From a virus (Duplodnaviria; Heunggongvirae; Uroviricota; Caudoviricetes), in IMG/VR virus record IMGVR_UViG_3300031413_000001: a stretch of DNA of 64,000 nt. The stretch is one strand, 5' to 3'. Within the stretch, counting starts at the first letter, position 1. Each line of letters starts with the position of its first letter. The notes beneath the pieces were generated by a model. The model saw only the letters and a list, made by a program, of their open reading frames with translations. It was not told the origin of the DNA and ran no database searches. The position numbers were made by a program, and so were the translations under genes. Of the stretch, positions 15,703 to 24,187 are shown in pieces.

Positions 15703-16359
15703 TCACCTCAAGATGGCCGCCGGCTTCCAGTTCCGAGTCCAATGCTCATCGGTTTGAACATGACCCTTTCGAACATACTTTGCAACATTGTCGGCGAAAT
15801 TGTCATTATGGAAACGCTCTGTCAATTGCATCACGAAACCTTCGCGGGCAGGACCGAGTGCGCTGGGTTGCCGGATGGCTTCATCAAACCACTGAGTTAT
15901 CTCGCGAACACTTCCAAACACACCACGGAACAGCAGAGGAACGGTCAGGAAACCAGCCTGCTCGGCAAACAACGTGCGCTCATCCAGGCTCATCCAGTAG
16001 TCGTCCTCGCGGACGTTGAAGACCCTGTAGGTTTCATCTTCCTTCAGGGGATCGTATTGGATGCTGTGAATTCCATAGAGGTCTTCCCCATACGTGAACA
16101 CGTTCGCGTTTACGTTAAGGGTCTTCCAGGCATGATGCTTTTTGACCATAGCGAACCAGCCCTGTGTGGCCGGCTGACCGGTGGAGCGCGCAAAGACATC
16201 ACCTTGCCAGAGACAGGTGTTGCCACCGTCTAGCTTTTCGCTGATACCCACTTCCACGCCCACAAAGCGTTCGGGGTTCTGATGAGTGCTGTCATCGCGG
16301 TGGACTTCCGGAGATGCCACCCAATGTGGACTCGACGGATATTTGGGAGGATGAATCAT
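15703..16359 (-). CDS. RNA ligase (ATP-dependent nucleotidyltransferase family)
   Basis: KYPSSPH, EKLDGGN (motif I), EGFV, KYVRKGHVQTDEHW. Confidence 0.85.
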   Translation of the reverse strand: MIHPPKYPSSPHWVASPEVHRDDSTHQNPERFVGVEVGISEKLDGGNTCLWQGDVFARSTGQPATQGWFAMVKKHHAWKTLNVNANVFTYGEDLYGIHSIQYDPLKEDETYRVFNVREDDYWMSLDERTLFAEQAGFLTVPLLFRGVFGSVREITQWFDEAIRQPSALGPAREGFVMQLTERFHNDNFADNVAKYVRKGHVQTDEHWTRNWKPAAILR

Positions 16360-16679
16360 AGTCCAGTCGACTTTCGGAACTTCTCGAACTCTCCCTCAAC
16401 CCAATCCTTCATCTCTTGAAGATAGGAGTTGGTATCGTGACCAAAGAACTTCTTGGTCTTGCGGAATATCGAGCGGGCTTCAGTACCCCATTCGGTTTCG
16501 TGATTGATGGAATAATAGCTGGAGTGAGCAGTGAGCTCGCCGATCTTTTGCTGGCCCACGTAACATGCCAGCAGAATGCGGGGTGAATCATCACCATGAA
16601 CCGGCGGTGCAGGATCCTGTTGACCAAACGTGCCGTCCCAGCCAACCGAACCAACGTCTTTCCAGACAAACTGCGTCAC
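16356..16679 (-). CDS. Hypothetical protein
   Basis: GTG start with AGGAG RBS; ATGA overlap with ligase. Confidence 0.65.
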   Translation of the reverse strand: MTQFVWKDVGSVGWDGTFGQQDPAPPVHGDDSPRILLACYVGQQKIGELTAHSSYYSINHETEWGTEARSIFRKTKKFFGHDTNSYLQEMKDWVEGEFEKFRKSTGL

Positions 16680-16683
16680 GTCT

Positions 16684-16728
16684 GATCTCCTTTCCACACC
16701 TGTTTAGCGTGGAAAGGAGATCTGTCAA
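16684..16728 (-). promoter_or_regulatory. 14-bp perfect inverted repeat spanning a promoter spacer and an RBS
   Basis: GATCTCCTTTCCAC (16684-16697) / GTGGAAAGGAGATC (16709-16722); TTGACA-N14-GCTAAACA on minus strand (16701-16728). Confidence 0.6.
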
Positions 16729-17189
16729 CAGCCTCGGAGCATGATGATCGTTTGTTCGACCATTTTGTCCAAGTCATCGAAGACTGGAACGTGCTGCATC
16801 ATTGCCGTTTGTTCAATGATATCAAAGCGTCGTGCATAATTGGGGTGGGTTCCGCACATCAATCCACCGACACGGATGCGCTCCATTGCGCTTCCATATT
16901 CCATCAGGGTGATGGGGCAGAGAGTCTCGCTGGGAAACCAAAAGAGGTTGAACTGACAGATCCGGAGCGCGTGGTATTCCCAGCGGATCTGAATGCGGGA
17001 CAGTTCTGCCCCTGCACTCATATCAAAGTCCGCACGACGCGGATTGTAGACAACAGCATCGGTTTCCGCTGCGATACGTTCCGCAACAGCCAGTTGCCAA
17101 TCGGCGCAATCCGAAATGCCGCCGGCCAGAAAGATGCTCTTCTGAAACGGGTGTTCCAGCTTTTCAGGGCTGGTGATGATCCGGCCCAT
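16725..17189 (-). CDS. Nucleoside 2-deoxyribosyltransferase-like protein
   Basis: SIFLAGGI, DWQ, YNPRR, QIRWE, FWFPSETLCPITLMEYG. Confidence 0.8.
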   Translation of the reverse strand: MGRIITSPEKLEHPFQKSIFLAGGISDCADWQLAVAERIAAETDAVVYNPRRADFDMSAGAELSRIQIRWEYHALRICQFNLFWFPSETLCPITLMEYGSAMERIRVGGLMCGTHPNYARRFDIIEQTAMMQHVPVFDDLDKMVEQTIIMLRGC

Positions 17190-17785
17190 TATACGAGGTT
17201 CACCAGCTGGCGATAGGGCGCACCATCGAATACATCGCGAGCCGACGTTTCGATTTCACGAACCAGCTTTTGCAGGACGTCGACCTTGAAGCCACGCTGC
17301 ACGAAGCCATCAACGGCCCACTTCACGCAATAGTCGCTGGCAACGCCCATTACTTCGATGGTCGAAGTGGTGGCCTTCATGTCTTCGAAGAACTTGTCAC
17401 GCGCCCAGGTCACCGTTGGGTTGCGATCGCCATAACCGGTATTGCCGATCAGGACGTCGTCATCTTCCCACATCGAGAACACACCTTTGATCAGATCGAG
17501 CGTTGCGATATCACCGCTGACCAGTGAGGGGTTGAACACGTTGGCATGGCCGAACGTTCCACGAACACAGTGGATTGGAAATTGCTTGCTTTCGGGGAGA
17601 TCGAAGTAGGTTGCCTGGTAGTGCGTGTCGTATGTGAACAACACACCCGAGTATTCATCGGGGTCGAGATTTGCCAGGAACTTGATCCCAGGAACGATGA
17701 TGTCTTCGGCGCCGGCTACATAGAGTGCGCCATCGGGCATCACGAAATCATACTGGGTATCGACGACAACTAGGAACTTTTTCAT
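17189..17785 (-). CDS. pncA: Nicotinamidase (isochorismatase family)
   Basis: VVVDTQYDF, DGALYVAGA, DTH, HCVRGT, GVASDYCV catalytic Cys. Confidence 0.88.
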   Translation of the reverse strand: MKKFLVVVDTQYDFVMPDGALYVAGAEDIIVPGIKFLANLDPDEYSGVLFTYDTHYQATYFDLPESKQFPIHCVRGTFGHANVFNPSLVSGDIATLDLIKGVFSMWEDDDVLIGNTGYGDRNPTVTWARDKFFEDMKATTSTIEVMGVASDYCVKWAVDGFVQRGFKVDVLQKLVREIETSARDVFDGAPYRQLVNLV

Positions 17786-17789
17786 ACAG

Positions 17790-17889
17790 TCCTCCAACTT
17801 TCATTGAGGTGTTTGGGGTGGTAGTTCAACCTTTCGATTAACTACCACCCCTATTTAACCATTATGGCACACTACACCAGTTTTGTCAA
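17790..17889 (-). promoter_or_regulatory. pncA leader: early and late promoters plus two GAAA hairpins
   Basis: TTGACA (17884-17889) N17 CATAAT; TAAATA (17852-17857); 12-bp stem 17815-17851; second hairpin covers the GGAGG RBS. Confidence 0.55.
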
Positions 17890-18338
17890 CCGGCGAACTC
17901 CGTGATGCCCAGGAACTCGCTAACATCCTGACCCAGCGTGACGTGAATCAGATCATGCCCACGCGTCATGTGCTGGTGATTGGGCGTGTCATCGTCGGTT
18001 TCCGATGAGCTCCAGATCTCCGCAGTGGAAACCTTGAACAGGAGACCGCGGGACTCAAAGCCGGCCAGCTTCTTCATCTTGACGCGATTGCGCTTTCCGC
18101 CGTCCAGCAGACCACGATCCTTGCCCTCACTGGTGTCCCAGTAGCCGCGCTCCTTGAGCACGTCGTCGGGGATGATGCTGCCCTCGCTGACGTAGCAGGC
18201 GACTTCGCCCTCGATCCAGCGGTAGTTGCCATCGTCGTCCTTGTTTGCGATGACCCGATGGCCCTCGCTGGTCGTCACGATGGAGAGCTTTTCGCCGTAA
18301 GGCTCAACCTTGGTTACTGTCTGGATGGTCGCGGTCAT
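17886..18338 (-). CDS. Stand-alone OB-like domain resembling the N-terminus of DRB0094-type RNA ligases
   Basis: GEVACYVSEGSIIP, RVKMKKLAGFESRGLL, GQDVSEFLGI pattern; no ligase catalytic motif. Confidence 0.55.
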   Translation of the reverse strand: MTATIQTVTKVEPYGEKLSIVTTSEGHRVIANKDDDGNYRWIEGEVACYVSEGSIIPDDVLKERGYWDTSEGKDRGLLDGGKRNRVKMKKLAGFESRGLLFKVSTAEIWSSSETDDDTPNHQHMTRGHDLIHVTLGQDVSEFLGITEFAG

Positions 18339-18507
18339 TGTTCTTCAGCCTTTCCAATTCTTGTCGATTGCGTTCGTTGCGATCCTTGAGGTCCGCAATG
18401 TAGAGATCCATATAGGCTCTGTGCTGACCTGTATAGAAGCCGGTTGCAAAGACTGCACCCATTATCAAGATCGTTAGGGCCAGGAACATTAAGAACGGAA
18501 TGTCCAT
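18304..18507 (-). CDS. Small membrane protein
   Basis: MDIPFLMFLALTILIMGAVFATGFY TM helix then coiled coil; TAATG coupling. Confidence 0.6.
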   Translation of the reverse strand: MDIPFLMFLALTILIMGAVFATGFYTGQHRAYMDLYIADLKDRNERNRQELERLKNNDRDHPDSNQG

Positions 18508-18770
18508 TACTGGTTGTCCAACCAATTCATGAAGCTGTGGATGCCGCCGCGCATCATCCGGCCCTTGATCTGCCAGGTTCCCTTGGTGGGATAGAACTGG
18601 ATCTTCATCTGGCCCTTGACGATATTCCATGTGCCGTTGGGATCGGGCGTCAGACTGTCGACTTTGGCGCGAACGTCCTCGATCATCGAGCCTGCCTGAG
18701 TGCTCCGGGCCTTGCGCTGCTCGCGCTGCATATCCTTCATATCATTGAAGATATCGCCCATATCACCCAT
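18507..18770 (-). CDS. Hypothetical protein
   Basis: Coupled ORF; IQFYPTKGTW. Confidence 0.7.
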   Translation of the reverse strand: MGDMGDIFNDMKDMQREQRKARSTQAGSMIEDVRAKVDSLTPDPNGTWNIVKGQMKIQFYPTKGTWQIKGRMMRGGIHSFMNWLDNQ

Positions 18771-19375
18771 TAGCTGTCTCCGTGCTCGACCTTGAACTCA
18801 TCGGGAAAATGCTCCTCGACCAGATCATGTATTACAGCAGGAACCCAACGTTTCCAACCATCATCTCGCGTTACGAGAAACTGGCGGAGTTCAGTGGCGC
18901 TGGGAACGTAGTTCTGCGTACGGTCGACCAGATGAAGCTGCCGAAACACACCGTTGGGCATGTAACGCTGGATGAACTCATCGGGCTGATCGTCAGCCGG
19001 CGAACCACACTCCTTGTTGAAGTAGCGACCACGATACCAAATGGCATCGGCGGGCGAACCAGTGAAGTAATCGGTGGGCTCGGGAAGTCCCATGCCGCGC
19101 ACCTTCTTCAGCAGGTAGTCGCACCACTCATTGGTGTCGCGGGTTGCACCAAGGTCGGCCACTGGGACCAGCTTGACACGCTCGCCGTAGATCCGCTTCC
19201 ACATCTGCATCCGCACTTCAACGGAGAATGGGTTGCTGATGCTGATTGGCTTGTCGGCCGAACCACAGGCGAGGATCACCTCATCGTAGTTGGCCGTCAT
19301 GATGTTGGCGATGCCCGTGTGGCCGAGGTGAACCGGCTGAGTACGCATCGCTGCCCATGCAACGCGCCGCGTCAT
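18770..19375 (-). CDS. nadM: Nicotinamide/nicotinate mononucleotide adenylyltransferase (NadM-type)
   Basis: RTQPVHLGH (HxGH), GSADK...NPFS...R, SATELR. Confidence 0.85.
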   Translation of the reverse strand: MTRRVAWAAMRTQPVHLGHTGIANIMTANYDEVILACGSADKPISISNPFSVEVRMQMWKRIYGERVKLVPVADLGATRDTNEWCDYLLKKVRGMGLPEPTDYFTGSPADAIWYRGRYFNKECGSPADDQPDEFIQRYMPNGVFRQLHLVDRTQNYVPSATELRQFLVTRDDGWKRWVPAVIHDLVEEHFPDEFKVEHGDS

Positions 19376-20091
19376 TACGCACCACCCTGCTGGCCGTAGC
19401 GACCTGCGATTTCCCACTGAGCATCGCTCTGCAGCTTGCTGGCCTTTTCGTTGACGCGCTTGAGCTCTGCGCGAAGGTAGATCAGCTCACCCTCCATTGC
19501 AAAGTACCGCTCTTCGCGCTCATATGCTGCCAGGCCCTGCATCATGAGTTCGAAGTGGTTGAAGGCCATTGGATACTTGGCCGCCAGTGCCTCGATGGGC
19601 AGTTCCAGATGAAGATCCGCGATGGGGAGACGCTTGATCTCCTGAATGTCATCACCGGCCGCCAGCGTGTTGACCTGACCCGGCGTCAGTACCGCATAGT
19701 AGCAGACGTTGGTCACGTGGGCCCTGGTGTCCGTCCGGGCGTTTGCACGAACGTCGAACAGCTTGAGCTGCTCCGGATACAGCTTGACCGAGAGTTCCTC
19801 CATTGCCTCACGCATCGCGCATTCCAGGGAGTTCTCACCCTCGTGGAATTCATCAGCGATGTACTTGAGATTCAGAAGCTTGTCGGCCACTGCGCGAGCC
19901 AGCTTCATCTCTTCGGTCTGACCCTCTTCGACGAATCGCGCTTCCATGAAGCCGCCCGGCAAGCTGTCGAAACCGGGATAGACCCACGCACCATCGCTCC
20001 GAACGCCGATGATGATTTCCTTCGCCACCGGGTCGATCAGCAGAAGTGTTGCGGTTGTGCTGGTTGCACGGAATGGATAGATGTATGCCAT
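19375..20091 (-). CDS. Nudix hydrolase (ADP-ribose pyrophosphatase-like)
   Basis: LPGGF, ECAMREAMEEL Nudix box, RTDTRAH, AGDD, MAFNH. Confidence 0.85.
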   Translation of the reverse strand: MAYIYPFRATSTTATLLLIDPVAKEIIIGVRSDGAWVYPGFDSLPGGFMEARFVEEGQTEEMKLARAVADKLLNLKYIADEFHEGENSLECAMREAMEELSVKLYPEQLKLFDVRANARTDTRAHVTNVCYYAVLTPGQVNTLAAGDDIQEIKRLPIADLHLELPIEALAAKYPMAFNHFELMMQGLAAYEREERYFAMEGELIYLRAELKRVNEKASKLQSDAQWEIAGRYGQQGGA

Positions 20092-20274
20092 TTAAGCCTC
20101 CTGTATGGTGAGCCGATGGCAGCAAATATCCACCTTGGCCCAAGTTGCGCCGTTCCAAGCCTTAAAGGCTTCTTCGTATGTCGTAAACGGTCCGTAGCTT
20201 TCCTGAGTGCCCTGTTCAAGCACTAAAAAGTCCGTGTTGGTGTAAATTCCGCCCTGAACCAAAAACATGCTCAT
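20092..20274 (-). CDS. Small DUF4170-like protein
   Basis: VQGGIY...ESYGPFTTYEEAFKAW...VD pattern; ATGA coupling. Confidence 0.5.
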   Translation of the reverse strand: MSMFLVQGGIYTNTDFLVLEQGTQESYGPFTTYEEAFKAWNGATWAKVDICCHRLTIQEA

Positions 20275-20609
20275 CTCCGCATTAGCTTCTCGAGCATTAA
20301 GTCCTGCTTCACCCTTTTTACAACCTGTTCCGGGTCTTCGAGCCACTCTTTGAGCTTTAGGGCAACTGCGGCAGTCACTGCGTCCTTGACATCAATCTCC
20401 GCTTCCTTGCAGAGCTTCTTCAAATCCTTGGTGTCCTGCTGATTCAGCCCAACCATGACCGTGACGTCGCGATCCCTGCCGGAAAGCCAACTGGTGTGCG
20501 TCAACGTGGTCTTGCAATGGATACACTTTCCATTGCTGCCGTAGAGCTGGTTGCGTGTCATCTTGGCATTGCACGTGGGCGACGTACAGCCAAAGAGTGG
20601 ATTCGCCAT
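20271..20609 (-). CDS. Zinc-ribbon protein
   Basis: CTSPTC ... CIHC. Confidence 0.65.
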   Translation of the reverse strand: MANPLFGCTSPTCNAKMTRNQLYGSNGKCIHCKTTLTHTSWLSGRDRDVTVMVGLNQQDTKDLKKLCKEAEIDVKDAVTAAVALKLKEWLEDPEQVVKRVKQDLMLEKLMRR

Positions 20610-20824
20610 CAGTCCGCTTTGACTGAAATCGAAATGTCGTTGAGCTTGGCCGGAACGTACTGGTTGTCCATGTAGCCCGTGGTCGTGCTGTCACTGATGT
20701 TCAGCTTGAACTCCTCGGGCTTGACATCAATCTCGTGAGTGGCCGCCATATGCTGGACGAGGATCTCACGGATTGCTGCTTCATCGAACGTGTAGGTTGT
20801 GGTTGTCTTGACCAGTCCGACCAT
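20609..20824 (-). CDS. Hypothetical protein
   Basis: RBS GGAGGAAGAG; coupled ORF. Confidence 0.65.
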   Translation of the reverse strand: MVGLVKTTTTYTFDEAAIREILVQHMAATHEIDVKPEEFKLNISDSTTTGYMDNQYVPAKLNDISISVKAD

Positions 20825-20836
20825 CTTCTCTTCCTC

Positions 20837-21049
20837 CTAATAGACCACTGTGAATGAGGGTTCGGCACAGACATCAAACTTTCGATGTCGCATACTGTCA
20901 ATGAGAATCTTGGCTTGCTTTTGGGTCAGCCAAGTGGCATCCTCTTTGACAGTCGTGAACGGCCCGGTGTTTCCTCGAATCCAGCTTGAGTGACCACAGT
21001 ACCACTCTCTGGGTTCACCTAGCTTGAAGACGAGATGTTTGCCCTTCAT
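20837..21049 (-). CDS. Hypothetical protein
   Basis: ATGA overlap with pncB stop. Confidence 0.6.
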   Translation of the reverse strand: MKGKHLVFKLGEPREWYCGHSSWIRGNTGPFTTVKEDATWLTQKQAKILIDSMRHRKFDVCAEPSFTVVY

Positions 21050-22359
21050 ACGAACACCGGGGCATCCTTCATGCCGTCTGCACCAAAGATCTTCCTGTAG
21101 CGGTCGACTTCCTTTTCGGGGCCAGTGGCCTTGGTGTAATTGTCGCTCAGCTTGACCGCGGGATGACCGTCAGCTTCAACGACCTTACAGACCAGCGAGA
21201 GCGGATCCAGCGAATGCTCCCCACGCGGATGGCAGCCCTTGAAATCGTTGGTAAGCATCGTGCCCCAACCAAAGCCAACGGTGACCTGATCCTTGTAGGT
21301 GTTCCACAGTTCGATGATGTTGTCGACGTCCAGACCATCGCTGAAGAGAACCAGCTTTTTCTTGGCGTCAACGCCCATCAGCTTCCACCAAGCAATCAGT
21401 TCCTCGGTGGCCGCATGGGGCTCCTTGCTGTCGGGACGGAAACCACGCCACTGACTGATCCACTGCGGTGCATCCTTCAAGAACTGTGTGGTTCCAAAAG
21501 TGTCCGGCAATGCGACCAGGAGGTTGCCCGAATACTCGTTCTGCCACTGCTTCAGCACCTCGTACTGGACAGCCTTCAGATCTTCGTCCTTGCCGCCCAT
21601 TCCGGCCTTGATTGCCGTCAGGGTCATGGGCAGTTCGTGTGCGTTGGTGCCGATTGCCTCAAGGCCCAACTCGGAAGCCAGGTAAGCGTTGCTGGTGCCT
21701 GCAAAGCCATCGCCGAGGACTTCCTTTGCTGCGCTGACCGCCCATTCCTGCCAGAGAAAACTGTGGCGACGACGGGTGCCCATATCGGACAGTCCCTTGA
21801 CGCCCGCGGCCTTGATGCTTTGCAGCTTGCCCCACAGTTTGGTCTTGGCACACGAGTAGAGAACGTCGAGTTCGAACTTGCTCAGGTCGGCCAGTGCTGC
21901 GCGGGTCTTGAGTTCCGAGACGATCGAAAGCGCGTGGATTTCCCACAAGCTGGTGATCATCCAGGGACCGGTGAACCGGAGAACGTAGTCGCCATCACTG
22001 TTCTTGCTGAGTTCATATTCGGGCAAGTGGAGCCGGCGAAGATGGTCGATGAACGCTGGCTTGAAGATGCGCTCCTGACCATAGAATGTCGCACCCTGGA
22101 GCCAGATCAGTTCCTTGGGCGTGAACCGCAAAGTGCGAACATGATCCAGCTGGGCGCGGAGTTCTGCTTCGTCGATGATCTTGCCGAGATTCACGGACTT
22201 GGTCCGGTTCTTCAACTGCAAGGTGATCACGTGCATGGGGTAACGCTCATGAATGAACTGGAGCATCAGCAGCTTGTAGAAATCGTCGTCGAGAAGCGAG
22301 CGCACGATGGGATCCATGCGCCAGTTATGATTGTGGGCGCGTGTTGCGAGATCGACCAT
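21046..22359 (-). CDS. pncB: Nicotinate phosphoribosyltransferase
   Basis: SLLDDDFYKLLMLQ, DMGTRRRHS, GTSN, GTNAHE, LPDTFGT, RPDS, FSDGL, KLSDN; proteobacterial PncB type rather than Nampt. Confidence 0.93.
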   Translation of the reverse strand: MVDLATRAHNHNWRMDPIVRSLLDDDFYKLLMLQFIHERYPMHVITLQLKNRTKSVNLGKIIDEAELRAQLDHVRTLRFTPKELIWLQGATFYGQERIFKPAFIDHLRRLHLPEYELSKNSDGDYVLRFTGPWMITSLWEIHALSIVSELKTRAALADLSKFELDVLYSCAKTKLWGKLQSIKAAGVKGLSDMGTRRRHSFLWQEWAVSAAKEVLGDGFAGTSNAYLASELGLEAIGTNAHELPMTLTAIKAGMGGKDEDLKAVQYEVLKQWQNEYSGNLLVALPDTFGTTQFLKDAPQWISQWRGFRPDSKEPHAATEELIAWWKLMGVDAKKKLVLFSDGLDVDNIIELWNTYKDQVTVGFGWGTMLTNDFKGCHPRGEHSLDPLSLVCKVVEADGHPAVKLSDNYTKATGPEKEVDRYRKIFGADGMKDAPVFV

Positions 22360-22423
22360 TGGAGCCTCCTATTCAGTTACAAGTGGTGCGATAGCAGGTC
22401 TCCCCACTATCGCAACCAGTTTG

Positions 22424-23509
22424 TTAGGCCTGGGCTGCGGTTGCAGCCTCAAGGGCAGGAGAAACAGCCTGCGGCCGACCCGATGCGTCCAAGACGCTCG
22501 AGGGGACGAACAGCCGATTGTCGATTTCCGACAGCGCCGCGTAACGGTCGTGGATCTTGTTCTGGATGTTGACCGGGTTCATGCGCTTGAACCACGTTGC
22601 GCCGACCCGCGTGACGACCGAGTTGAACACCTGCATGGCGCGCTCGTCATCGACCAGTTCCAGTGCATCACGAACCTGGCCAACGCTGGTGTCGCTGCTG
22701 ATCACCCGATTGTCCTGCAGGATATCCGAGATCGCGTTGATCATCAGGTCCCATTCCAGGTAGCTGGCACCCAGCTGGGCTTCGTCACCTGCGCTGATAC
22801 CCAGACCATCGGTTGGCGTTGCGCGCCACGTGGTCTCGGGAACGCCCACGTACTTGCTGATGAACGGAACTTCCCAGCTCTTCAGAAGCGACTGGATGGG
22901 CGAGAGGTCACCCACATCACCGTGTAGCGTCCAGAAGCCGGCAGCCAGTTCCGAGAAGTTGTCGGTGCTTGCGACCAGTCCGCGCTCCGCGGCAGCGAGA
23001 TTGTACAGCGTGACCATCCGGAGACGTGCGCGAACATTGCCGCGACGGATCTTGATCGCCGTGGTCTCTTCCTCGGCAAAGACCAGATCGGGATCGACGA
23101 TCGCCTGCGTCTTCAGCGTTGCCTCGTAGAGGAGACCCAGATCAACGTGCTGGTGTTCCAGGCCCAGTGCCATGCAGGCCTCGATGCCGCTCTGCGTTTC
23201 TGCGGGATCCTGCTTGATCGGCATCGTAACACCGATGACACGCCATTCAGCGCGCTTGAACAGTGCCGCGGTCAGTGCCGAGTCAACACCGCCGCTCATG
23301 CCCAGCACGACCGTCGAGATGTTGTTCTCTTCGCGATACTTGACCAGGCGGGCCACGATATCGTCGGCCAGGTCGGCCAGCTGAACTTCTGTGGGGAAAT
23401 GGCCCTGATTGATCTGAAGGGCCAGTTGATTCTCAAACCAGGGGCTCAGAGCGCCGATGTTGTTTTGGCGCGAGAGGTCGAGAATTGGAAAGCGTAGTGT
23501 ATCGTTCAT
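22424..23509 (-). CDS. nadE: NH3-dependent NAD+ synthetase
   Basis: LGMSGGVDSA PP-loop, NVRARLRM, STDNFSE, GFWTLHGD, PTDGL; no glutaminase domain. Confidence 0.92.
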   Translation of the reverse strand: MNDTLRFPILDLSRQNNIGALSPWFENQLALQINQGHFPTEVQLADLADDIVARLVKYREENNISTVVLGMSGGVDSALTAALFKRAEWRVIGVTMPIKQDPAETQSGIEACMALGLEHQHVDLGLLYEATLKTQAIVDPDLVFAEEETTAIKIRRGNVRARLRMVTLYNLAAAERGLVASTDNFSELAAGFWTLHGDVGDLSPIQSLLKSWEVPFISKYVGVPETTWRATPTDGLGISAGDEAQLGASYLEWDLMINAISDILQDNRVISSDTSVGQVRDALELVDDERAMQVFNSVVTRVGATWFKRMNPVNIQNKIHDRYAALSEIDNRLFVPSSVLDASGRPQAVSPALEAATAAQA

Positions 23510-23581
23510 GTGCCTTACCTTTCGATAGGTTTTATGGTCCAACAGGATCGCGACCGGAATCCGTTCCTGCTATGCTGTTAC

Positions 23582-24187
23582 TTATACATCCGAGATATCC
23601 TCCACGTCAACATCCGTCTCAACAAAGTTTTGAATGTCGAGACTGACTATGGGAACATCAGTGGGAAGGGCCAGCCGGAATAGCATGGCGGCCTTCCGAT
23701 CCTTGAACGCAACCGCAAGCCCACGAGTGTTGGCTTTTCGGTAGTCCTTGTTCATCTTCAGCTTGCTGTCACGGAGTTGCATCATAAATGATTCCTCCCA
23801 TGCAGCCGACTTGTTATGCTTGAATGGAACGAGAAGCAGCCACGACCACGCATCCTGCTGGTCATCCTTTTCGATCCGCTTAATCAGATCTGAAAAACTG
23901 CTGCCATACTTGTCTGCGAGGTCGTTGAAGCGGCGCTCCTTCTCGATAAAGTCGGCGAGCACCGTTGTGTTGCCCACCGTTTCCTTTACGATGATCTCGA
24001 TGATCACGACGTCTCGGTCAGGCAGTGTTTTATCAGAATTGCGTGACCAACTGGCCGTGCCCAGGCTGTTCTTGAGGTGCCCAAGATTGTTCCAAGTCTT
24101 ACCAGTCTTGGACCAGCCACCACCGGCAGTACGATACAGCCCGGATGTCTGATCCTTTACCTTATAGACCTTGATCTCGTCGCTCAT
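23582..24187 (-). CDS. Hypothetical protein, paralog of 13137-13736
   Basis: YKVKDQ...GKTWN; C-terminal FKDRKAAMLFRL. Confidence 0.7.
   Translation of the reverse strand: MSDEIKVYKVKDQTSGLYRTAGGGWSKTGKTWNNLGHLKNSLGTASWSRNSDKTLPDRDVVIIEIIVKETVGNTTVLADFIEKERRFNDLADKYGSSFSDLIKRIEKDDQQDAWSWLLLVPFKHNKSAAWEESFMMQLRDSKLKMNKDYRKANTRGLAVAFKDRKAAMLFRLALPTDVPIVSLDIQNFVETDVDVEDISDV

Follow-up and report, generated by a model that had tools for sequence, protein, structure and literature searches.

Several gene sets that restore or supply NAD+ in phage-infected cells have been described. NARP1 is defined by Adps and Namat, and NARP2 by Nampt and Nmnat, the latter represented by NadV and NatV of vibriophage KVP40 (Osterman et al. 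2024, bioRxiv 10.1101/2024.02.11.579819). NARP3, which combines PnuC with NadR, was published in 2026 (PMC13464706). [quoted passage not shown] Among cellular routes, that of Francisella tularensis, as far as it is summarized in PMC3376133, which cites Sorci et al. 2009, leads via NadE* and NadM from NaMN to NMN and then to NAD.

The window, that is, the whole stretch of 64,000 nucleotides that we analyzed (IMG/VR virus record IMGVR_UViG_3300031413_000001), belongs to a jumbo myovirus, with genes for the portal, major capsid protein, sheath and terminase; the major capsid protein is 86% identical to its counterpart in Sinorhizobium phage Phosso. An earlier note on this DNA had named six genes, namely, those for PncA, a NadM-type adenylyltransferase, a Nudix hydrolase, PncB, NadE and an NDT-like protein. 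Family profile matches place all six, co-oriented, where the note had put them (Table 1); the NAD genes all share the minus strand, and the start coordinates given in the note are their low ends. All reading frames of the cluster are intact. The 150-aa protein probably represents half of a split RNA ligase and not an NAD enzyme; the second half is the nucleotidyltransferase domain encoded beyond the NDT-superfamily protein, which aligns with positions 135-332 of the 342 in phrog_24030.

Table 1. Genes and RNA elements of the NAD locus, with positions in the window.
Feature	Position	Strand	Description
Type-B leader RNA	23510..23590	-	5' of nadE; alignment, model R2
nadE	22424..23509	-	ATG at 23509; 361 aa; single-domain (ammonia-type) NAD synthetase family
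pncB	21046..22359	-	nicotinate phosphoribosyltransferase, alphaproteobacterial type
Four small ORFs	20092..21049	-	70, 71, 112, 84 aa; last is DUF4170; some kept in clade
Nudix hydrolase	19375..20091	-	NrtR / NadM-Nudix ADP-ribose clade (by profile and fold)
NadM-type (archaeal-type) NMN/NaMN adenylyltransferase	18770..19375	-	201 aa; motifs and profiles
87-aa ORF	18507..18770	-	71-79% identity in several clade members
150-aa protein	17886..18338	-	resembles N-terminal domain alone of DRB0094-type RNA ligases
Sigma-70-like promoter and type-A leader RNA	17786..17889	-	5' of pncA; model R1
Divergent nicotinamidase (PncA-like, isochorismatase-fold)	17189..17785	-	triad, metal site, PDB profile matches
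NDT-superfamily protein	16725..17189	-	PF15891 3e-16
RNA ligase nucleotidyltransferase domain	15703..16359	-	PF09414 6e-17; context, not NAD enzyme

In none of the four core enzymes do the catalytic residues vary among 9-13 clade homologues (40-80% identity). In the PncA-like protein, these residues are the triad D13, K104 and C157 and the metal site D57, H59 and H76 (D-H-H); the likely start codon of the gene is the ATG at 17785, with GGAGG in front, and every best match of the family profile in PDB is a nicotinamidase. PncB contains the NAPRTase_N and NAPRTase domains, scores 441 bits with NF003704 (cut-off 379) and is about 60% identical to the PncB of A. tumefaciens (1ybe, 532 bits); we propose that it was derived from the host lineage. 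It is the single NAPRTase-family gene in each related genome, and judged by these profiles, the phosphoribosyltransferase is of the PncB type and not of the Nampt type, in agreement with the earlier note. NadM carries the invariant motifs RxxPxHxGH and PSATExR (HxGH and SxTxxR), matches NF002243 at 1.5e-13 and has its best PDB matches among archaeal NMNATs (1f9a, 1ej2). NadE, which has the P-loop motif SGGVDS and is extended by ~90 aa at its C terminus, matches Pfam NAD_synthase (5e-40) and the TIGR00552 domain model (132 bits, cut-off 63.7). The scores of PncA (NF008623), NadM and NadE are all below the NCBIfam equivalog cut-offs, so we infer the exact substrates.

The genes for PncA, NadM, PncB and NadE lie together in at least 16 contigs of IMG/VR, in orders that differ between contigs and include a compact pncB-nadE-nadM-pncA operon, which argues that the clustering is not due to chance. 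Two cultured phages, Phosso and Atu_ph07, carry the same gene set. In the relative L018, a canonical bacterial PncA (NF008623, 199 bits, above the cut-off) occupies the spot of the divergent one, and among the relatives, NadE is swapped between three non-orthologous types; these two replacements support the assigned functions. The search of a near-identical contig of ~417 kb (G001, 90% complete) for Nampt, Prs/Adps, PnuC and NadR detected none of these, and hence the cluster is the only NAD route found there. The lack of a PRPP synthetase, which had been reported for the window, extends to G001, Phosso and Atu_ph07: PF13793, the PRPP synthetase/Adps domain, was not found in these three genomes, and the same search detected it in 14 of 14 control genomes. 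Phosso and Atu_ph07 also encode a PnuC and NadR-like pair outside the NAD cluster.

New here are two related, structured leader RNAs in front of nadE and pncA, which went unremarked in the first reading of the sequence. The type-B leader of nadE, with the late-promoter-like GTATAAGTA, has a covarying hairpin (GGAU..GGUCGC, in which a G is bulged) and a second hairpin, CCUAUCGAAAGGUAAGG, that is predicted to sequester the Shine-Dalgarno sequence. The leader comes after the late-promoter-like TATAAGTA, with a perfect TATAAATA in Phosso. The promoter of pncA is sigma-70-like (TTGACA-17-TGcCATAAT) and is followed by the type-A leader (MFE -31 kcal/mol, z = -5.6), which consists of an outer stem, an inner hairpin (UAAUC-loop-GGUUG, in which an A is bulged) and a further hairpin, CCUCAAUGAAAGUUGGAGG, likewise predicted to sequester the Shine-Dalgarno sequence. 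In the type-B alignment A8 (11 sequences), 95% of the cells are paired, compared with 85% after shuffling (0/500), and covariation scores 0.338 versus 0.149; pairing in slid controls is 31-40%. At the nadE leader, model R2 reaches 76 bits, and at the pncA leader, model R1 reaches 112 bits, the sole R1 site in the ~417 kb of G001; the models cross-detect each other's sites, and the motif occurs in G001 only at these two. Each leader stays in place where the downstream coding sequence is swapped. The two leaders are related, and their structure is backed by covariation. As candidate riboswitches or RNA operators able to hide the ribosome-binding site, they probably gate the translation of nadE and pncA.

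We consider it moderately probable that the operon rebuilds NAD+ from nicotinamide by a deamidating, leader-gated route and so upholds NAD+ under NADase immunity or other cleavage. In this scheme, in which the activities, the order of substrates, the regulation and the counter-defense role are all putative, PncA would convert nicotinamide to nicotinate, from which PncB would make NaMN with host-made PRPP. The NadM-type adenylyltransferase and NadE would complete NAD+ by adenylylation and amidation, in either order. The Nudix hydrolase would split ADP-ribose into AMP and ribose-5-phosphate, and the leader RNAs could hide the ribosome-binding sites of nadE and pncA. Both inputs of the scheme, nicotinamide and ADP-ribose, arise when NAD+ undergoes glycohydrolysis, so that the likeliest benefit would be NAD+ kept available in the face of a host NADase or other cleavage. 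In that sense, the operon would act like the NARP pathways, yet it belongs to none of them.

It is possible, although we would not call it probable, that the genes are instead a general auxiliary metabolic set that provides more NAD+ for a long and costly infection by a ~420-kb phage, with its demands from NAD-dependent DNA ligase and redox metabolism, or allows the use of environmental nicotinamide or nicotinate, with no specific link to NADase immunity. The likely hosts, Rhizobiaceae, possess PncA, PncB, NadD and NadE of their own, and the phage genes might do no more than increase the flux. The NAD-dependent DNA ligase LigA, encoded by G001, Phosso and Atu_ph07, is a non-defense reason for a phage to want NAD+, and the position of the cluster amid late structural genes, with the nadE leader behind a late-promoter-like element, is no obvious fit to early counter-defense. 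Li et al. 2024 (PMC11662467) present clusters of this kind in the first place as a means of independent NAD+ provision, and NARP-like genes are common in bacterial chromosomes, suggesting housekeeping roles (PMC11724313). However, LigA, the sole phage NAD+ consumer found, releases NMN and not nicotinamide; this NMN needs NadM alone, leaving PncA and the ADP-ribose hydrolase unexplained. Searches of the three genomes for ADP-ribosyltransferase (PF03496) and SIR2 (PF02146) found neither, and hence no phage enzyme that would generate nicotinamide. The putatively regulatory leaders suggest a conditional rather than a constitutive need.

If the operon does rebuild NAD+ from nicotinamide, its last two steps can be ordered in two ways. 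The proposed route from Nam via NA and NaMN to NAD+ given in the earlier note holds, but NaAD as a set intermediate does not, given that NaMN to NMN to NAD is equally open with a NadM-type enzyme (PMC3376133). In the latter, Francisella-like order, NadE would act as an NMN synthetase and NadM would convert NMN to NAD+. The cluster has a NadM-type enzyme where a NadD-type NaMN adenylyltransferase was not found, NadM enzymes often prefer NMN, and NadM can be partnered by an NMN synthetase as well as by an NAD synthetase (PMC3376133). The phage NadE falls into the short NadE subgroup, and its profile rates Francisella 3fiu (122.5 bits) almost level with C. jejuni 3p52 (126.6) and P. horikoshii 2e18 (124.4). 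We nevertheless regard this order as unlikely. The archaeal and Acinetobacter NadM accept NaMN (PMC3376133), and single-sequence searches with the phage protein rank the NAD synthetase of C. jejuni first (87 bits, versus 71 for 3fiu). Furthermore, three non-orthologous NadE types occur at the same position or within the same genome set, the substitutes in relatives being canonical PRK00768-type and glutamine-dependent PRK13981-type NAD synthetases, which argues that the conserved step would be NaAD to NAD.

The NatV protein of KVP40 is a NadM-Nudix fusion. In such bifunctional enzymes (slr0787, FtNadM, NatV), NadM is N-terminal to Nudix; here, there are two genes, Nudix followed by NadM. Profile and fold matches support the homology of these genes to the fused enzymes, and the phage Nudix would be the split-off, reversed-order counterpart of their Nudix domain. 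The earlier note had it act on ADP-ribose, and both profile and fold indeed assign it to the ADP-ribose-binding clade, closest to NrtR with bound ADPR and the NadM-Nudix ADPRases. It appears quite unlikely that, rather than feeding ribose-5-phosphate, this enzyme works independently on immunity or RNA, whether by breaking down immune signals derived from ADP-ribose, by detoxifying ADP-ribose, by trimming NAD(H) or by taking off NAD caps. In favor of such a role, the enzyme has unusual additions, namely, an insertion of ~35 aa within its otherwise intact catalytic box and a 55-aa C-terminal helix; NudC and Dcp2 are among the fold neighbors, with slightly weaker scores; and phage enzymes have been reported that both break down ADPR-based signals and supply NAD synthesis (bioRxiv 10.64898/2026.05.28.727677). 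Against this stand the top matches themselves, the translational coupling to NadM, whose likely ATG overlaps the Nudix stop codon by 1 nt, and the adjacency of Nudix to NadM and PncA in 3 of the 3 cultured or near-complete genomes. A chance neighborhood or decayed, functionless host-derived passengers, which the scores of several enzymes below curated cut-offs might suggest, are effectively refuted by the intact frames, the invariant catalytic residues, the in-place replacement by functional analogues and the retention of the cluster across phages with proteins only 40-60% identical.

The resulting NAD+ route differs from NARP1 and NARP2, as the earlier note had held; its count as a 'third' NAD-reconstitution design was overtaken by NARP3. 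With NARP1 and NARP3, it shares the supposed purpose, NAD+ restoration during infection. Unlike NARP1, the cluster has no Prs-like Adps and no Namat, and ADP-ribose is predicted to be hydrolyzed, not pyrophosphorylated; unlike NARP3, G001 lacks PnuC and NadR, the pair that Phosso and Atu_ph07 carry additionally. With NARP2, the route shares nicotinamide and PRPP at the start and an adenylyltransferase, here of the NadM type, at the end, and with KVP40 NatV, the presence of both NadM and Nudix domains. However, the cluster has no Nampt, and the amide would be removed and then re-added by PncA, PncB and NadE, in four steps versus two; NadM and Nudix are encoded separately, in reverse order.

The idea itself was anticipated by Li et al. 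2024 (PMC11662467), in both the jumbo-phage Preiss-Handler clusters and the proposed countering of NAD+ depletion, and the present cluster resembles theirs in grouping nicotinate-route NAD+ genes on jumbo phages. It differs in the NadM-type enzyme in place of NadD, the nicotinamidase that makes nicotinamide the entry point, the stand-alone ADP-ribose-type Nudix in the conserved core, the two conserved leaders before nadE and pncA, and the likely hosts, of the soil Rhizobiaceae type rather than gut bacteria.

Salvage pathway I of bacteria (PncA-PncB-NadD-NadE), which NrtR, a repressor that senses ADP-ribose, often controls, has the same chemistry, and the PncA triad and metal site, PncB and NadE are all present in the phage, with NadM replacing NadD. 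The phage Nudix, although of the NrtR-related clade, retains its catalytic box and lacks a winged-helix DNA-binding domain, and control in the phage is apparently at the RNA level. With the Francisella route, the cluster shares NadM, a short single-domain NadE and the lack of NadD, but phage relatives have canonical NAD synthetases in the place of NadE. The leaders resemble the class I (nadA motif) and class II (pnuC motif) NAD+ riboswitches in being cis-acting on NAD-pathway genes; the class II riboswitch also involves the ribosome-binding site. Unlike these, neither phage leader has a credible match in Rfam 15, even at E <= 10, and what is conserved in them is a stem that contains a U-G pair and a bulged purine and is capped by a variable loop, an architecture more like that of a protein operator; with the stems conserved and the loop variable, a protein-bound operator fits no less well than a metabolite riboswitch.

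Every gene that the earlier note had assigned to a four-enzyme deamidating NAD+ rebuilding cluster with an added Nudix hydrolase is found on the minus strand of the window, and its observation as a whole, covering genes, motifs and clustering, is confirmed. The coordinates of the cluster and of neighboring features are summarized in the table.

Features of the NAD cluster and its surroundings in the window
Feature	Position	Strand	Details
nadE	22424-23509	-	ATG 23509 behind AAGG; Pfam NAD_synthase 5e-40; SGGVDS P-loop; TIGR00552 132 bits (cut-off 63.7)
Inverted repeat	22365-22423	-	GCGATAG..CTATCGC, in the nadE-pncB gap, immediately before the pncB ribosome-binding site
pncB	21046-22359	-	NF003704 441 bits (cut-off 379); both NAPRTase domains
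Four small ORFs	20092-21049	-	one is DUF4170
DUF4170 protein	20092-20346	-	84 aa; Pfam 3e-15
Nudix	19375-20091	-	
NadM-type adenylyltransferase	18770-19375	-	NF002243 1.5e-13; best PDB matches archaeal NMNATs
87-aa ORF	between the NadM-type gene and the 150-aa ligase-like gene	-	
150-aa ligase-like protein	17886-18338	-	apparent half of a split RNA ligase
PncA-like hydrolase	17189-17785	-	ATG 17785 behind GGAGG
NDT-superfamily gene	16725-17189	-	PF15891 3e-16
113-aa ORF	16356-16697		insertion, absent from G001
218-aa protein	15703-16359	-	apparent half of a split RNA ligase
Variation hot spot	16353-17891		compared with 9637-11137 of L015 (G001)

The genes of the window include those for portal, T4-type major capsid protein, tail sheath, tube, terminase, UvsX and helicase. 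The capsid protein shares 86% identity with its counterpart in Sinorhizobium phage Phosso (469 kb) and 69% with the one in Agrobacterium phage Atu_ph07 (490 kb). G001, a 416,714-bp IMG/VR contig that is 90% complete according to CheckV, contains 67% of the 31-mers of the window and is ~98% identical to it in the cluster flanks. Together, these similarities indicate that the window is part of the genome of a jumbo myovirus of ~420 kb, whose host is probably Rhizobiaceae-like, and G001 was used as a stand-in for the full genome in whole-genome searches. No tRNA genes were found in the window, and a megablast search of GenBank phages with the cluster gave no match. The two ~98% identical phages differ at a hot spot around pncA, where the middle third of the gene is mosaic (73% amino acid identity, with the catalytic residues kept) and G001 has ~270 nt of extra sequence upstream of the pncA promoter. 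The similarity of the 150-aa protein to DRB0094/phrog_968-type RNA ligases is confined to their N-terminal ~110 positions, and in the 218-aa protein only the nucleotidyltransferase part is matched (PF09414; positions 135-332 of 342 in phrog_24030); these apparent ligase halves flank pncA and the NDT-like gene in all members of the clade.

The enzymatic activities of the cluster proteins are inferred from family membership and catalytic residues, which were aligned with homologs gathered from IMG/VR loci. PncA-like homologs of 44-79% identity share an invariant Asp-Lys-Cys triad (D13, K104, C157) and invariant metal ligands (D57, H59 and H76), and the top PDB matches of the family profile are all nicotinamidases, namely, that of P. 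horikoshii (1im5, 2e-17), M. tuberculosis PncA and yeast Pnc1. The NadM motifs RxxPxHxGH and PSATExR are likewise invariant, as is the Nudix signature GE..A.RE..EE, even though a variable insertion of ~35 residues splits the box. The Nudix profile and AlphaFold model (pLDDT 82) best match the ADP-ribose-bound Nudix domain of NrtR (3gz8), the NrtR-like proteins 2fml and 3i9x, as well as the ADP-ribose pyrophosphatase domain found in NadM-Nudix enzymes from Francisella and Synechocystis (2qjt, 2r5w, 2qjo); thus, the Nudix and NadM genes, in which the probable NadM start (ATG 19375) has one base in common with the Nudix stop, correspond to the NadM-Nudix fusion split in two and reversed in order. 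The Nudix protein carries, besides the in-box insertion (residues 49-84), a 55-residue C-terminal helix (residues 179-235) that members of the leader-bearing clade have but Phosso, Atu_ph07 and the related locus L026 lack. PncB, with 532 bits and about 60% identity to the solved A. tumefaciens enzyme (1ybe), derives, by this similarity, from the host lineage. The NDT-like protein (model pLDDT 88) belongs to a family with mostly viral members; its nearest structure is the uncharacterized structural-genomics protein 4mcj, and it is only distantly related to TIR, Rcl/DNPH1, MilB and true NDTs.

The strongest evidence in the analysis is the conservation of the pathway. The order nadE-pncB-(small ORFs)-Nudix-NadM-(87 aa, 150 aa)-PncA-NDT is repeated in no fewer than 12 IMG/VR contigs, 160-480 kb in length, with proteins 40-80% identical to those of the window, and the DUF4170 gene is kept between pncB and Nudix in several relatives. 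A PncA-profile search yielded 26 viral loci, in most of which PncA adjoins a NadM-type gene and pncB and nadE lie within 10 kb, though the order of the genes varies; at one locus they form a compact pncB-nadE-nadM-pncA operon that lacks Nudix. The four genes thus recur together across phages, in shuffled as well as identical orders, and the proposed deamidating route is widespread among giant phages. Phosso has the same cluster as the window, and Atu_ph07 has a Nudix-NadM-PncA block, with pncB 3 kb and nadE 85 kb away. Individual genes are replaced: in locus L018, a canonical bacterial nicotinamidase (NF008623, 199 bits; cut-off 174) occupies the position of the divergent PncA behind the same leader, and NadE comes in at least three non-orthologous types, the short one of the window, the canonical PRK00768 type of Phosso (381 bits) and the two-domain glutamine-dependent PRK13981 type of Atu_ph07, L021, L026 and L032. 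A second, divergent NadE paralog (342 aa; TIGR00552, 101 bits) is encoded in G001 at ~252.5 kb, far from the cluster (L014 1399-2427). Selection evidently acts on the steps of the pathway rather than on particular genes, for which the in-place replacements are unusually clean comparative evidence.

What the pathway is for can be approached from its inputs. NAD+ depletion is among the commonest bacterial anti-phage strategies, and to our knowledge, only three phage routes of NAD+ rebuilding have been shown by experiment. G001, Phosso and Atu_ph07 all encode an NAD-dependent DNA ligase, so that a general supply of NAD is a serious alternative to counter-defense. LigA releases NMN, which NadM alone could recycle, yet a nicotinamidase and a putative ADP-ribose hydrolase are present, and these would fit the two products of NAD+ glycohydrolysis; the gene content thus mildly favors a response to NADase activity over simple ligase support. 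Among phage NAD+ consumers, neither PF03496 ADP-ribosyltransferases nor SIR2 were detected in G001, Phosso and Atu_ph07, the single find being a macro domain in Atu_ph07, with models (PF03496, SIR2, Macro) that might miss T4 Alt-like enzymes. The window had been noted to lack a PRPP synthetase, and neither this gene nor an Adps-like one is found in these three genomes. Phosso and Atu_ph07 additionally contain PnuC adjoining a NadR-like NMNAT (L056 2758-4713 in Phosso; gp586/gp587 in Atu_ph07), a NARP3-like pair outside the cluster, and therefore hold two NAD routes; neither gene was found in the 90% complete G001. On balance, a counter-defense role is plausible, and we consider it about as probable as general NAD supply. 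The cultured lytic pairs in the clade, Atu_ph07 on A. tumefaciens C58 and Phosso on S. meliloti, allow a direct test.

The NadM-type enzyme allows two orders of the last steps: NaMN to NaAD to NAD, with NadM taking NaMN, as in archaea and Acinetobacter, or NaMN to NMN to NAD, with NadE as an NMN synthetase, as in Francisella (PMC3376133). The latter order is the less probable one: the phage NadE belongs to the short subgroup, and its profile scores the Francisella enzyme (122.5 bits) nearly equal to those of C. jejuni (126.6) and P. horikoshii (124.4), but relatives use canonical NAD synthetases in place of the phage NadE, and for this reason the NaAD route is favored.

Control of the cluster apparently lies with two leader RNAs dedicated to it. 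In the 88-nt gap upstream of pncA, a sigma-70-like promoter, TTGACA-17-TGcCATAAT, matches 11 of 12 positions; scans with sigma-70 and terminator consensuses showed no overall enrichment, and this single promoter is relied upon because its hexamers are conserved in relatives. The type-A leader, 3' of the promoter, consists of an outer stem, an inner hairpin UAAUC-loop-GGUUG with a bulged A, and a hairpin, CCUCAAUGAAAGUUGGAGG, in which the Shine-Dalgarno sequence pairs with an upstream CCUC (MFE -31 kcal/mol, z = -5.6). The alignment of seven distinct homologs contains four compensatory pairs. The type-B leader, upstream of nadE, is preceded by a late-promoter-like GTATAAGTA, of which Phosso has the perfect form TATAAATA, and shares the type-A architecture, with a hairpin RAUC-loop-GGUY with a bulged purine followed by CCUAUCGAAAGGUAAGG. 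Across 11 type-B sequences, 95% of cells are paired, compared to 85% in shuffles (0/500 reach it) and 31-40% in slid controls, and the covariation score is 0.338 against 0.149. The two leaders are related, as the covariance models of type A (R1) and type B (R2) each detect sites of the other type; in G001, each finds its own site only, and within the window, the Shine-Dalgarno hairpin occurs only at pncA and nadE.

In Phosso and in the divergent contigs L048 and L051, nadE is immediately preceded by a weaker copy of the leader, with both sides of the Shine-Dalgarno hairpin changed together (CCCAU/GUGAGG); nadE of Atu_ph07 has no leader. When IMG/VR was scanned for the pattern of the type-B Shine-Dalgarno hairpin, 55 loci were returned, among which, judged by R2 score and downstream gene, the only new true sites upstream of nadE are L086 and L112. 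Matches of ~25 bits to R2 were rejected as seeded chance hits that lack an NAD gene in their vicinity. The leader is kept when the downstream gene is swapped, for canonical PncA in L018 and for glutamine-type NadE in L021 and L032. Neither leader has a match in Rfam, and the U-G pair, being invariant, speaks for an element that acts as RNA and not as DNA. A conserved stem with a bulged purine under a variable loop would be expected of a protein-bound operator no less than of an aptamer for a metabolite. If regulatory, the leaders would be a rare case of structured RNA control of a phage metabolic or counter-defense module and could explain how the phage avoids wasteful NAD+ synthesis.

It is possible, although we regard it as rather unlikely, that the leaders constitute a new class of cis-regulatory RNA for phage NAD+ rebuilding, which would restrict translation of nadE and pncA to times of NAD+ destruction. 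They would then act either as a riboswitch for a metabolite of the pathway (NAD+, NaMN, nicotinamide or ADP-ribose) or as an operator for a phage protein, for which the ADP-ribose-binding Nudix of the cluster, with its added C-terminal helix, is a possible candidate. Counter-defense would in that case be inducible, sparing the constitutive over-production reported for NARP2.

Among the known systems, the cluster is neither NARP1 (Adps and Namat) nor NARP2 (Nampt and Nmnat), as the earlier note had maintained; G001, Phosso and Atu_ph07 each have a single NAPRTase-family gene and, hence, no Nampt or Namat. Nor is it NARP3 (PnuC and NadR; PMC13464706). A November 2026 review gives only NARP1 and NARP2 as demonstrated pathways (PMC13728456), our literature search found no experimental work on PncA, PncB and NadE together with phage, and the NAD pathway was not recognized in the Atu_ph07 paper. 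The chemistry is that of bacterial salvage pathway I, but with NadM instead of NadD. The closest published relatives are the Preiss-Handler clusters (pncB-nadD-nadE) of "NAD-jumbo phages", whose authors suggested a counter-defense role but did not test it (PMC11662467). The interpretation of the earlier note is supported in part: the gene set and the proposed non-NARP1/2 route stand, whereas the novelty is narrowed by these published clusters. An NAD cluster on a jumbo phage is known, and that of the window is a variant distinguished by the PncA feed, the dependence on NadM, the split ADP-ribose hydrolase and the apparent control by a leader pair.
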